Position numbers and translations under genes: made by a program
The notes under the pieces: model-generated
What the model was told of the DNA's origin: nothing
Seen by the model: only the letters and a program-made list of their open reading frames with translations
The model's database searches: none
Shown here: piece after piece, positions 24,373 to 29,430 of the stretch
Numbering within the stretch: position 1 is the first letter of the stretch
How the letters are laid out: each line of letters opens with the position of its first letter
Assembly: GCA_965219995.1 (NCBI GenBank)
Contig: CBDCOX010000002.1
Span: 4,352,001-4,416,000, forward strand
Direction of reading: 5' to 3'
DNA length: 64,000 nt
From: Candidatus Latescibacterota bacterium
GTDB lineage: Bacteria > Latescibacterota > UBA2968 > GCA-2709665

Positions 24373-24470
24373 CGCCGCACCATACCCGGGTTTCGGGGAC
24401 GGTCCCGGGACGCGCTTACGGTGACTGCGCCGGCGGCATCCGCATGCCGTCAGACGGAATCAGCGAAAGG

Positions 24471-27400
24471 ATGGCATTCGTGAATTCCACACCAACTTTC
24501 CAGGAGCTCATTCTTCGCCTCGAACGGTACTGGGCGGACCGGGGATGCGTCATCTGGCAACCTCATAATGAGAAGGTGGGCGCCGGGACGATGAACCCCG
24601 CCACGGTTCTTCGAGTGCTCGGTCCGGAGTCCTGGAACGTGGCCTACGTTGAACCCAGCTTCCGCCCGGACGACGGAAGATTCGGCGAGAATCCGAACCG
24701 GATGCAGATGCACACGCAGTACCAGGTCATTCTCAAACCCGAGCCGGGCAACCCCCAGGAACTTTATCTGGATAGCCTGGATGCATTGGGTCTGGACCGG
24801 CGGCAGCACGACATCCGTTTTGTGGAAGACAACTGGGAACAGCCCGCACTGGGCGCGTGGGGCCTGGGGTGGGAGGTCTGGCTCGACGGCCTGGAAATCA
24901 CCCAGTTCACCTATTTCCAGCAGGCCGGAGGTCTGTCCCTGGACCCGGTGCCCGTCGAAATCACGTACGGCATGGAACGTATCGCCATGTACGTGCAGGA
25001 TGTACGCGAAGTCTGGCAGCTTCAATGGAACGATCAGGTCTCCTACGGCGACATTCTCAGACAGCAGGAAGTGGAGTACTGCACCTACGAGTTTCACGCC
25101 GCAAACGTGGAACGCCTGCATACCATGTTCAACCTCTTCCATGACGAAGCCGCCGCCGCCATAGACCGCGGTCTCGTCATTCCCGCCCATGACTACGTGT
25201 TGCGGTGCTCTCATACCTTCAACCTGCTGGACACCCGCGGAGCCGTTGGCGTTACCGAGCGTGCGCGGTATTTCGCGCAGATCCGCAACCTCGCCACACA
25301 GGTGGCCGAAGGATTCGCCCGGCAGCGCGAAGCGACCGGGCACCCCCTCAAAAGGAAGACCAGAGCCGCAACTGCACCGGATTCGGGACCGGGCGCTGAA
25401 CCGCTGGAGCGCGCCGAACTGCTTCTGGAGATCGGATCCGAGGAACTCCCGCCTCAGGACGTACGGTCGGGGATCGAACAGCTCAAAGCGTCACTGCCCA
25501 GGCTTCTTCAGGAGCAGAGGCTGGAATATGACGACGTCGAAATAACCGGTACGCCCAGACGGCTCGTGGCCATCGTCAGGAATCTCGTTGGCCGGCAGCC
25601 GGACCGCAGACGCGAAGTACGCGGACCGGCCGTGAAGGCCGCTTACGACGACGAAGGAAACCCCACACGCGCCCTCGCGGGATTCTGCCGCGGCCAGGCC
25701 GTCTCTCCAGGATCGGTGGAACACAGGCCGGACGACAAGGGCGTTGAATACGTCTATGCCCGGCGTCACGAGCCCGGACGCGAGACACAGGAAATCCTGT
25801 CGGATGTTCTTCCCGGGCTGATTGCCGGCCTGAACTTTCCGAAAACAATGCGTTGGGACTCCGACGGCATCGCCTATCCCCGGCCTCTGCGCTGGATTGT
25901 CGCCCTGTTTGGAAACCGGATGATCCCGTTTTCCTTCGCCCGGATCCGGAGTGGGCGTGCCAGCCGCGGCCTCAGGCCAGCGGGCGATCCGCCAATCCGG
26001 GTGGAATCCGCTGAGACCTATCAGCCGCAAATGCAAGAACACGGCCTGATCGTCGACCGGGACCGGCGAAGAAAAACCATCTGGAAGCAGGTCCTCGAAG
26101 AGGCGCGGACGGCAGGCGGCAGTGTGCGGGAAGATCCGGATCTGCTCGACGAAGTCACCGACCTGGTCGAGGCGCCGTTTGCGCTTTGCGGCGGTTTCGA
26201 TGAAACCCACCTTGAACTGCCGCAGGAGGTCTTGGTCACCGTACTCAGGACATACCAGCGCTACTTCCCCATCGTGCACCCGGAGACCGGCCGACTGCTA
26301 CCCCGGTTCGTCGCCGTATCCAACGGCAAGCCGGAGGATACGGGCCCCGTCGTTCGCGGGAACGAGAATGTCGTTCGCGCCAGATTTGCGGACGCCGCCT
26401 TCTTCTACAGGGAAGACGGCCGAAAACCCCTGGAAGATTACCTGCCGCGGCTGGACACGCTTACCTACCAGGACGACCTCGGATCCGTCAGGGACAAGAG
26501 TGCGCGAATCGAGCAGCTTGTTTCCGTGGTTGCACCGGAACTGGGGCTGACGGACGGTGGCACGAGCACGGCAGAGCGGGCGGCCCGGCTGTGCAAAGCC
26601 GATCTGGCCACCGGAATGGTTGTGGAGATGACGTCCCTTCAGGGTGTGATGGGGCGCTACTATGCCCTGTTATCCAAAGAGACAGACGAAGTGGCCCTGG
26701 CCATTCAGGAACACTATCTTCCCCGGTTTCCCGGGGATATGCTGCCTGCAGGCGAATCCGGATTTGCGGTTTCCGTCGCCGACCGGCTGGACAGTCTGGC
26801 CGGCCTGTTCTGTGCCGGCATCAAGCCCCGGTCCACCGCCGATCCCTATGGACTGCGCCGCGACGCGCTGGGTCTCCTCGCACTGCTCATCGGGAAACGC
26901 CGCCACTTCTCCCTCAAAAAGGGCCTGGAGGCCGCGGCGTCGGGCCTGCCTGTCCGGATCGATGCAGATCGATTGAACGACGCATATACGTTCATCCTGC
27001 GCCGCCTTGGCGTACAGCTGAAAGAGGAGGGCTTTCGCCACGACGTGGTCGAAGCGGCCCTTGGCGGCGGATGCGACGATCCCTTCGGCCTTCGCAACAT
27101 CGTGGAAGGCCTCGATCGAATGGTCCGTTCGGACAATTGGACGGAAACGCTTCATGCGTACGCGCGCTGCAGACGCATTGTCCGCGACCTGGATGAAATC
27201 CATCCATTGAATACTGACGCAGATCCGGCCCCTGCTTCCCGCAGCCTTCTCGAAAAGTGGCGGGACGCCCGCAACGTGATGGATGGCTGCGATGCCGGGA
27301 TCGACACGCTGGATAGCGTGCTTGCCGAAATGCGCGGACCCATCAACACCTTCTTCGATGAAGTCATGGTGATGGATGAAGATCCAGTCCTGCGGGCGGC

Positions 27401-27476
27401 GCGCCTGGCGCTGGTGCAGCGTATCGCCTCTCTCGCCGAAGGCGTTGCGGACCTGAGCAGGCTGGAGGGGTTTTAA
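24471..27476 (+). CDS. glyQS: Glycine--tRNA ligase, fused alpha and beta subunits
   Basis: Alpha motifs [36 protein letters not shown], then beta motifs [28 protein letters not shown] in one ORF. Confidence 0.95.
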
Positions 27477-27489
27477 GTCTGTTTCGCCC

Positions 27490-28071
27490 ATGCGCATAAT
27501 CACGGGAAAACTCAAAGGCCGGACCATCCCCTTCATCGTCGGGAAATACGGGAATGCCCGCGTAACGCCGGCAAGGGTCAAAGAGGCCGCGTTTACCGTC
27601 CTGGGCGCCCGGCTCGACCGGCTTCATTTTCTCGATCTCTTTTCCTGTTCCGGGCAGATCGGGCTGGAGGCGTACAGCCGCGGCGCCCGGGTGCTTCTGA
27701 ACGAACCGGATCGTCGCCGGCGCCGCTTTCTTTCAAGACTTCTGAAAGACTGGGATGTCGAACGACAGGTCCGACTGCTGGATCGGCCGGCGGAGACACT
27801 TCTGCCGCTCCTGGAGTCGGAAAAGCGGCACTTTGACGTGATTTACCTGGACCCGCCGTACCGCCTGCAAATGGACGGGGTTCCGTTCGCCCCCGCCATC
27901 CTTGCCCGCCTGAGCGGTTCGACCCTCGTTGCTCCGTCGGGCCACGTCCTCATACAACACTTCGCAGACCTGGAGTTGCCCGTTGCCGCAGGTGCCCTTG
28001 CGCTGCGGGTGCGGAAGAACTACGGCGGGACTTCATTATCCGTGTACCAGAGGGTGGTACGCGGCGAGTAG
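27490..28071 (+). CDS. rsmD: 16S rRNA m2G966 methyltransferase RsmD family
   Basis: MRIITG, LDLFSCSG and DPPY motifs. Confidence 0.88.
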   Translation: MRIITGKLKGRTIPFIVGKYGNARVTPARVKEAAFTVLGARLDRLHFLDLFSCSGQIGLEAYSRGARVLLNEPDRRRRRFLSRLLKDWDVERQVRLLDRPAETLLPLLESEKRHFDVIYLDPPYRLQMDGVPFAPAILARLSGSTLVAPSGHVLIQHFADLELPVAAGALALRVRKNYGGTSLSVYQRVVRGE

Positions 28072-28092
28072 GCCTCAATCCGAAAGTTCCAT

Positions 28093-28121
28093 TTGCTTTG
28101 GTACGCCAACGTACGTATTTT
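28093..28121 (+). promoter_or_regulatory. Putative sigma-70 promoter of the candidate selenoprotein gene
   Basis: TTGCTT-17 bp-TATTTT. Confidence 0.45.
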
Positions 28122-28158
28122 TCAGGTATCCAACCCTATTCCGAAAGGAGTCGACCGC

Positions 28159-28437
28159 ATGGATACGATGCACGAGTCTATCGAATTCCGCCCCCGCGGC
28201 CGAACGCTCGCCATGGGCGGTATCCCCTGGCTGCCGCGGATAACGGACAAAGCCCGGGCCATGCTGAGGAACAATATCGGCGACTACGTCTACCCCTGAC
28301 CCGCCGACAGGAAGTTCCTGGAGGAACTAGGCATACCGGAAGAAAAGTTCACGCGGATCGTCTCGGAATGTAAACTGGACGAGGAAGTCATCGAACGCGT
28401 CCGCCCCTATTTCGAGAAGTCCCGAAGTCGCCGATAA
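28159..28437 (+). CDS. DUF5069-like small protein with in-frame UGA (codon 47), candidate selenoprotein
   Basis: SD AAGGAG; translates as MDTMHESIEFRPRGRTLAMGGIPWLPRITDKARAMLRNNIGDYVYP-UGA-PADRKFLEELGIPEEKFTRIVSECKLDEEVIERVRPYFEKSRSRR-TAA. UGA falls at the family Cys position. Confidence 0.78.
28302..28332 (+). promoter_or_regulatory. Candidate bacterial SECIS hairpin
   Basis: AGTTCC-TGGA-GGAACT stem-loop with the loop starting 20 nt after the UGA, plus a possible lower GCC/GGC stem. Confidence 0.6.
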
Positions 28438-28443
28438 GACAGG

Positions 28444-28478
28444 AAAGCCGCCGCGCAGCGCGGCGGCTTCGTATTTTT
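28444..28478 (+). terminator. Intrinsic terminator
   Basis: AAGCCGCCGCG-CAG-CGCGGCGGCTT followed by CGTATTTTTT, just after TAA 28437. Confidence 0.8.
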
Positions 28479-28494
28479 CCACCCGATCGGAACG

Positions 28495-29430
28495 CTAACG
28501 CCTCCCGCCTTCCGGCAATGCCTGCCTGGCCAGCGCTCTGATCTCGCCTGACTCCATCCGAAGCAATCCGTCGATCCCGATCACGTCAGCCGCGATGAGC
28601 TGCGGACATTCCTGGGCAGCCAGATCGTATGCTTCTTCGACATCGTAGTTGACCCCTCTGTACCTGTAGAGATGGCCCAGGCTATCCAGCTGTCCACTGC
28701 GTCTGAGCGAATTGGTGACGCCCATCTTGAAGTAATATAACTGCCGGTCTCTCCTGTCTCCCCACCTCAACGTATCCGGCTCCGGGACATCCGCCATCGA
28801 TCGGTCGAGTTCCGCCTGAAAGGCGTCGATCTGGCCGTCGACCATCTCCAGCAGCCCCCGAAGGATTTCCCTGCGAGCGGCCTCTCTTTCGTCCTGGAGC
28901 ATATCCTGCAGCACCAGCGCTGCCTTTCCGTAAAACACGTAGCGTTCGCGCTTCCCCTCTCCGAACAGATCCATTTCAATGGCTTCGGCCTTACGCGCCA
29001 GGGCCTCCAGGTCGAGGGTATCGTCGCCCACGCCGGCATAGTCGTCGTCCCCGCGCGCTACCTGAATGCCCACCAGAAAGGCCTGCTCGACAACTTGCAT
29101 CATATTTTCGGCCGGATCGAATACCCGCAATTTCCCGGACGCTTTTCTTTCCGTGCGTACCGGATCCGCGGCAGGCGTAAACCCTCTTCCGATCAGTATC
29201 TGCTCAGCTTCTATACCCAGACGACCCAGCAGTTCACGGAGCACGCCGCTCAACACCGGATGCCGTGCAGTCGGCAGGAATTCACCCCGGTCCGCCACGA
29301 CGAGGTCCGCCATCTCGGACGCCAGCGCTTCGTCTCCCTCGGAATCGGCATTCTTTCGCACGTCCCGTGCGCGCGTCAGGCGGAAGACAATCACGAATAT
29401 CAACAGGACAGCCGCGACGACATAGACCAT
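28495..29430 (-). CDS. Hypothetical protein with N-terminal membrane anchor
   Basis: 311-aa ORF, hydrophobic N-terminus, 19 bp after the ABC permease; no motif recognised. Confidence 0.7.
   Translation of the reverse strand: MVYVVAAVLLIFVIVFRLTRARDVRKNADSEGDEALASEMADLVVADRGEFLPTARHPVLSGVLRELLGRLGIEAEQILIGRGFTPAADPVRTERKASGKLRVFDPAENMMQVVEQAFLVGIQVARGDDDYAGVGDDTLDLEALARKAEAIEMDLFGEGKRERYVFYGKAALVLQDMLQDEREAARREILRGLLEMVDGQIDAFQAELDRSMADVPEPDTLRWGDRRDRQLYYFKMGVTNSLRRSGQLDSLGHLYRYRGVNYDVEEAYDLAAQECPQLIAADVIGIDGLLRMESGEIRALARQALPEGGRR

Follow-up and report, generated by a model that had tools for sequence, protein, structure and literature searches.

The question raised by this locus is whether a TGA in the middle of a small open reading frame ends a peptide of 46 residues or is read as selenocysteine (Sec) in a protein of 92. 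The frame lies in a 64,000-nt stretch of DNA from the metagenome-assembled genome of an uncultured marine bacterium, a Candidatus Latescibacterota; this whole stretch, which was the object of the analysis, is called the window here. A first-pass annotation made from the sequence had marked the frame as a candidate selenoprotein gene. From the comparisons between genomes presented below, the product of the frame is very probably a selenoprotein of 92 residues that belongs to DUF5069 as a short form and has Sec at UGA codon 47. New bacterial selenoprotein families are regularly reported. This one would come from Latescibacterota, a candidate phylum of which we know no cultured members.

Organization of the locus

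The features of the locus are collected in Table 1. The Shine-Dalgarno-like motif, the ATG that opens the frame and the TGA in its sequence context can be read straight from the DNA, as the first-pass annotation had them. Its count of 45 sense codons between the TGA and the final TAA is also right, with 28437 being the last base of that stop and not the first. The same annotation held that a promoter and a terminator bracket the readthrough form. A strong terminator-like stem-loop is there, with 11 pairs, nine of which are G-C, followed by a T run. The promoter part did not stand: a motif scan of 27900–28600 found no sigma-70-like promoter. A weak terminator-like site, consisting of a 5-bp stem and a T run (28101–28121), was seen just past the rsmD-like gene.

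Table 1. Features of the short DUF5069 locus, in window coordinates
Feature	Position	Strand	Remarks
Shine-Dalgarno-like AAGGAG	28145–28150	+	8 nt ahead of ATG 28159; from sequence
Short DUF5069 selenoprotein CDS (predicted), 92 aa	28159–28437	+	ATG 28159, stop TAA 28435–28437
TGA codon 47 (predicted Sec)	28297–28299	+	In-frame; context GDYVYP-TGA-PAD
Predicted SECIS hairpin	28313–28328	+	Stem AGTTCC 28313–28318 / GGAACT 28323–28328, loop TGGA 28319–28322
Intrinsic-terminator-like stem-loop with T run	28445–28478	+	Stem-loop 28445–28469; minus strand too, for the convergent gene
RsmD-like methyltransferase (PF03602), upstream neighbour	27490–28071	+	Context only

Two other genes of the window were noted in passing. 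One is a fused glycyl-tRNA synthetase, alpha plus beta (1010 aa, PF02091 and PF02092), at 24444–27476. The other is a convergent gene of 311 aa on the minus strand (28495–29430), which is found beside the Sec gene across genus g1 with 75–92% identity. The 311-aa product belongs to no Pfam or NCBIfam family and shows no similarity to the gene upstream of DUF5069 in family f3 (see below). It was dropped as a potential functional partner: it co-occurs with the Sec gene in genus g1, with one partial match outside that genus (L044).

Conservation of the TGA and alternation with cysteine

Matches to the frame were found in 60 of 61 related genomes and, at E <= 1e-12, in 121 of the 168 genomes of the phylum. 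By hand count, 104 of these 121 rows have the TGA and 17 have no stop; four of the 104 also list a TAG close to the end of the match. The TGA is kept while identity drops to 38–45%. By family, matches are present in 19 of 21 genomes (f1), 29 of 31 (f2), two of three (f4) and 69 of 76 (f3). Ten other families of the phylum, with 36 genomes between them, gave a single match, to a long paralogue with Cys; in this sample of genomes the short form therefore occurs in one class only.

We extracted 92 short orthologues, comprising 81 of the 104 TGA rows and 11 of the 15 short rows without a stop; the remaining two of the 17 no-stop rows are long paralogues. The stop falls exactly at aligned codon 47 in all 81 TGA forms, and the other 11 of the 92 have TGC or TGT there. 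The first-pass annotation had proposed to look for such an alternation among related genomes, and had reasoned that close relatives all carrying TGC or TGT would point to a private mutation. They do not, and a TGA shared at one codon by 104 of the 121 genomes with a match is more than chance would give.

The history of the site was followed on a rapidly computed maximum-likelihood tree built from the 92 proteins (78 columns, with the Sec/Cys column masked), which is unrooted and poorly resolved. On this tree there are at least four changes of state between Sec and Cys, at least two of which are forced by well-supported branches. For example, two Cys forms, L047 and L048, branch from within a group of 18 Sec forms that has 97% support, which reads as a clear case of Sec-to-Cys replacement. 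The Cys forms of f3 are placed between two large Sec clades. Sec in the short DUF5069 proteins may have originated once or twice, both of which are compatible with the unrooted tree.

Presence in public sequencing runs

Among the public runs listed, 20 from 12 studies contain part of the stretch; sponge, coral and marine metagenomes are among them, three are RNA libraries, and four were placed on the window. An independent sponge-metagenome DNA run, X6, has the locus at 99% identity or above, with contigs that reach the UGA from upstream. Two metatranscriptomes of one study gave RNA-library contigs at 28156–28421 (X18) and 28145–28421 (X19), with three differences each, and a third RNA-library run from another study (X20) gave a contig at 27490–28536 with 91 differences. 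The UGA lies inside each of these three contigs. Since RNA libraries can contain DNA, these contigs are compatible with transcription and are not proof of it. X18 and X19 have no cover at 28075–28139, where the DNA run X6 continues. This gap and the weak terminator-like site near it give a weak hint that the selenoprotein gene might be a transcription unit of its own; as X18 and X19 come from one study, a separate transcript start is a weak hint at most.

A short form of DUF5069

The resemblance to DUF5069 that the first-pass annotation had put forward was borne out by a search of Pfam, in which the 92-aa readthrough product matched PF16798 with an E-value of 3.1e-14 (53.7 bits, cut-off 27). 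The match takes in residues 12–82 and runs across codon 47. Positions 4–74 of the 133 in the profile are covered, which is less than a full-length domain, and the protein is therefore a short form of DUF5069, without the C-terminal half found in the crystal structure 3omd and in paralogues of 140–180 aa. No NCBIfam family matches the 92-aa product at E <= 1. Using a profile of close homologues, one solved structure was found, PDB 3omd (E 4.7e-15), in which the Cys of GEYTYNCPLD aligns with codon 47.

An AlphaFold2 model computed from 41 aligned sequences has a pLDDT of 91.1 and a pTM of 0.80, with predicted helices at residues 25–36, 48–57, 61–70 and 74–91. Because the second of these helices begins at residue 48, residue 47 would form its N-terminal cap. 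Nine residues are invariant in the 41-row alignment (P12, R13, R27, D30, K31, R33, Y43, D50 and D74). When the model was compared with the PDB by Foldseek, 3omd was the sole match below E = 0.001 (TM 0.77, rmsd 1.6 Å, 78 columns); as this protein is uncharacterised, the fold gives no functional lead.

The wider family was sampled by an exhaustive search of 1.84 billion representatives, which returned 386 matches at E <= 0.001, and the best 148 were examined. Among these best 148 of 386, single-domain proteins that cover the site have Cys in 100 of 110 cases, the others being six Ser, two Pro, one Trp and one Gly. The UGA thus sits on the conserved Cys, as the first-pass annotation had it, both by alignment to 3omd and by the residue found in these representatives. 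Cys is not universal there: another residue stands at the site in 10 of the 110 single-domain representatives and in 20 of the 26 repeats of multi-domain proteins in the same best 148 of 386 (18 Ser, 6 Cys, 1 Gly and 1 Asn). The long paralogues of 140–180 aa have Cys at the position of codon 47.

A 463-aa paralogue with three tandem DUF5069 repeats was also noted in the same genome (C2:3628419–3629810; L118, 920–2311), with a Pfam E-value of 3.3e-87 over three stretches. It keeps the Cys in its middle repeat only (YNCPID) and has (D/E)(D/E)SG in the other two. Similar frames of 430–480 aa occur in most related genomes.

A hairpin downstream of the TGA

The stem-loop AGTTCC-TGGA-GGAACT lies where the first-pass annotation had placed it. 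Its 6-bp stem starts 14 nt past the UGA and its loop starts 20 nt past it, with 19 nt between. The criteria for a bacterial SECIS element (bSECIS) quoted in a recent review (PMC13188914) are a loop of 3–9 nt, a stem of 4–16 bp, a G at one of the first two loop positions and a UGA spacing of 16–37 nt, together with a model energy limit of -7.5 kcal/mol. With a loop of 4 nt, a stem of 6 bp, UGGA as the loop and a spacing of 19 nt, the hairpin agrees with these published loop, stem, loop-G and spacing values, so the geometry of a SelB-binding SECIS that had been claimed for it holds.

Folding of the single sequence gives a less distinct picture. The isolated hairpin has an energy of -6.8 kcal/mol, weaker than the -7.5 limit of the published model (PMC13188914); its z is -1.28, and an equally good fold is reached by 28 of 200 shuffles. 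A 48-nt stretch reaches -11.1 kcal/mol via a competing fold (z = -0.48; 51 of 200 shuffles fold as well). The minimum-energy fold of the window's own sequence is a competing 5-bp hairpin, CAGGA-AGU-UCCUG (28308–28320), which needs AGG at codon 51, a codon found there in one of the 50 Sec forms tabulated. A lower stem, pairing codons 48–50 with 59–62, was seen in single-sequence folds in shifting registers; it is dropped by RNAalifold and was rejected. As single-sequence folding is unremarkable, the support for the hairpin rests on the comparison between genomes.

In this comparison the loop T-G-G-A is invariant in all 81 Sec forms, in an ungapped alignment. Families f1, f2 and f4 contribute 50 Sec forms, and in these codons 52–56 do not vary synonymously at all: AAG is used in all 43 that have Lys, and TTC, CTG, GAG and GAA in 50 of 50 each. 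At other positions of the gene, these amino acids show codon entropies of 0.4–2.1 bits. RNAalifold, unprompted, returned the same 6-bp hairpin. Over 74 distinct rows, which come from kin genomes and are not independent, 92.9% of the cells are paired versus 81.7% in shuffles, a level reached by none of 500 shuffles; slid controls have 20–63% of cells paired.

The check for covariation that the first-pass annotation had called for was thus positive, and the individual pairs show where it comes from. One stem pair is G-C in 43 of the 74 rows and C-G in 31, and the next is A-U in 39, G-U in 25 and G-C in 10, with neither broken in any row; two further pairs tolerate U-G wobbles only. The flip from G-C to C-G divides families f1, f2 and f4 from f3 and goes with changes of Lys to Arg and Leu to Val. 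Because it separates two clades and involves these amino-acid changes, it may be a single event.

The Cys forms provide the counterpart. All 11 differ from the Sec consensus inside the 16-nt core, in the stem or in the loop. In both L047 and L048 a pair is lost through a single synonymous substitution, L077 has an intact stem with the loop UACA, and the eight Cys forms of f3 have the hairpin altered at several positions. The hairpin clearly illustrates how one set of codons is restricted both by an RNA fold and by the encoded protein.

Selenocysteine machinery in the genome

The genome search proposed in the first-pass annotation found selA, selB, selC and selD, all with scores above curated cut-offs and all on C2, the 5.4-Mb contig to which the window belongs. 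The tRNA-Sec, with anticodon TCA, scores 73.4 bits (cut-off 47), selB is full length at 366.8 bits and selA scores 558.9 bits; these three are adjacent at C2:1802582–1806100. The selD gene lies at C2:2652925–2653848 (359.9 bits, one in-frame TGA) and has a hairpin, CAGTCC-GGTC-GGACTG, whose loop starts 18 nt past the selD UGA. As an observation on the side, selD is a selenoprotein gene itself, with its in-frame TGA in the motif C-G-U-A-A-K (locus L022, 1441–1680).

With this machinery, recoding in the short DUF5069 gene would most likely follow the ordinary bacterial mechanism. SelB with GTP and Sec-tRNA(Sec) would bind the UGGA-loop hairpin that starts 14 nt past UGA codon 47, and selenocysteine would then be inserted at codon 47 in place of termination.

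Translation past the UGA and alternative explanations

Were the UGA a real stop, the gene would yield a 46-residue peptide, and the downstream sequence would be conserved as an RNA element or as a separate product. Gene callers do produce the 46-residue form (database entries P0014, P0016 and P0019), and seven further cluster representatives among the best 148 of 386 end exactly at residue 46. However, the codons past the UGA evolve as protein-coding sequence. By the Nei-Gojobori method, dN/dS for codons 8–46 upstream and codons 58–86 downstream is 0.022 and 0.121, respectively, in 15 genomes of genus g1, and 0.022 and 0.077 in 18 genomes of g6. Synonymous sites vary freely at conserved downstream residues, for example F64 (TTC 25, TTT 25) and D74. 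Low dN/dS together with free synonymous change argues that the downstream part is selected as protein, and, with the PF16798 match across codon 47, upholds the earlier statement that similarity continues past the UGA. The frame runs on to a second stop at codons 90–95 in the 50 TGA forms that were extracted first. The downstream part matches both the DUF5069 profile and 3omd, and in the window sequence it has neither a start codon nor a ribosome-binding site of its own. Termination at the UGA is therefore very improbable. Still less credit is due to a pseudogene, a nonsense mutation private to this genome or a mistake in sequencing or assembly, for which nothing speaks except the stop codon itself. 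The TGA recurs in 104 of the 121 genomes with a match, across many genera, with purifying selection on both sides, and this conservation and selection refute such an origin; furthermore, the contigs of DNA run X6 reach the TGA from upstream, and the RNA-library contigs span it.

Another explanation is that the UGA is read through without Sec, with Trp, Cys or some other amino acid inserted by a near-cognate tRNA, in which case the hairpin would be no more than a general stimulator of read-through. Sec and another inserted residue are indistinguishable by the computations used here, and two database proteins, P0006 and P0007, have W at position 47 (YPWGAD), which is how some gene callers read it. 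TGA is an ordinary stop codon in the window, where it terminates 22 of 39 long open reading frames, and the W in these two entries is thus most simply the result of a wrong code table; TGA also serves as the final stop codon in 22 of the 92 extracted short orthologues. Against insertion of an arbitrary residue, the site is the conserved Cys of the family and alternates only with Cys codons, in all 11 of the short forms that lack TGA. The genome also has the complete Sec machinery, and the hairpin resembles that of its own selD and has the bSECIS geometry described in PMC13188914. We consider read-through of this kind improbable, and recoding of codon 47 as Sec remains the preferred reading.

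Gene neighbourhoods and possible function

The RsmD-like gene is directly upstream in f1 and in most f2 loci, with 46–89% identity, and we see no functional link to it. Of 28 loci sampled in family f3, with Sec as well as Cys forms, 23 carry a gene of 345–456 aa that abuts DUF5069 directly upstream on the same strand, and nine of the 28 have an FNR-like NAD-binding oxidoreductase gene (PF00175) directly downstream. The upstream gene is missing from five f3 loci, which make up a Sec lineage of their own and have the motif FLEGA. The product of the upstream gene (for example, L159:2881–3987) has no match in Pfam, even at E <= 1, or in NCBIfam or the PDB. By language-model similarity only, it falls near the APH-type phosphotransferases and is possibly kinase-like, which is only a lead. 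A homologue with 38% identity exists in the window's genome (C2:4723562–4724560), where it is not a neighbour of the Sec gene. This homologue was seen to sit directly upstream of a gene of the AIR-synthase family (PF00586 and PF02769).

On the basis of this gene context, of the invariant Arg and Lys residues and of the place of Sec47 at a helix cap, we would suggest with low confidence that Sec47 is a single nucleophilic or redox-active residue, and that the substrate is small and probably anionic. A redox step would be in keeping with the apparent operon of f3 (kinase-like gene, DUF5069 and often an FNR-like gene), again with low confidence. A more speculative proposal, which we hold to be on balance unlikely, is that the short DUF5069 protein could be the selenol-bearing catalytic part of an undescribed small-molecule pathway of Latescibacterota, with the kinase-like and FNR-like proteins as its partners in f3. 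The SECIS element would then have been carved from a pre-existing F-L-E-E motif, with Sec gained or lost at least four times in one class. Whatever the reaction, the use of Sec at this site marks the conserved Cys of DUF5069 as the likely functional residue.

Relation to known selenoproteins

The short DUF5069 proteins apparently constitute an undescribed selenoprotein family. Table 1 of a May 2026 review (PMC13188914) gives 119 prokaryotic selenoprotein families and subfamilies with domain accessions, and the comparison with a published family list that the first-pass annotation had left to be made found neither PF16798 nor DUF5069 anywhere in this complete table. In passages from the papers on BSepDB (PMC13326102) and deep-Sep, neither DUF5069 nor Latescibacterota is named. 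Our literature searches found no publication naming DUF5069 or PF16798, a single paper, and there an incidental mention only, for Latescibacteria together with selenoproteins, and for 3OMD only unrelated uses of the abbreviation.

In the public databases, a Cys form is named "DUF5069 domain-containing protein", and the truncated TGA forms that were looked up are unnamed. Entries are either cut off at residue 46 or have Trp at 47, and none of those looked up is called a selenoprotein; the short DUF5069 genes are thus mis-annotated. Their recognition would add a well-supported family, from a candidate phylum, to the bacterial selenoproteome.

The closest known system is the DUF5069 family itself (PF16798), for which a crystal structure exists (3omd, an uncharacterised protein of Leptospirillum rubarum) and in which no member has a known function. 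The short form shares family and fold with 3omd and the DUF5069 Cys proteins, whose conserved Cys in G-[DE]-Y-x-Y-x-C-P-x-D aligns with U47. It differs from 3omd in that Sec replaces Cys and in its length of about 90 residues, as opposed to 145. The hairpin is like the bSECIS consensus in its 4-nt loop, its 6-bp stem and a G at loop position 2 followed by another G. It also resembles the selD element of its own genome, which has a 4-nt loop and a stem of 6–7 bp likewise ending in UCC/GGA, but the loop is UGGA here and GGUC in selD. Among the computationally predicted bacterial selenoproteins in Table 1 of PMC13188914 are members of DUF166, DUF523, DUF1573, DUF1858 and DUF3179. The evidence for these is of the same kind as that presented here, namely an in-frame UGA standing in the place of Cys, homologues that have the Cys, and a hairpin in the coding region just downstream. 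The short DUF5069 proteins belong to a different family and, unlike those selenoproteins, have no partner Cys in a UxxC or CxxU arrangement, but a single Sec in the motif Y-P-U-[PG]-A-D.
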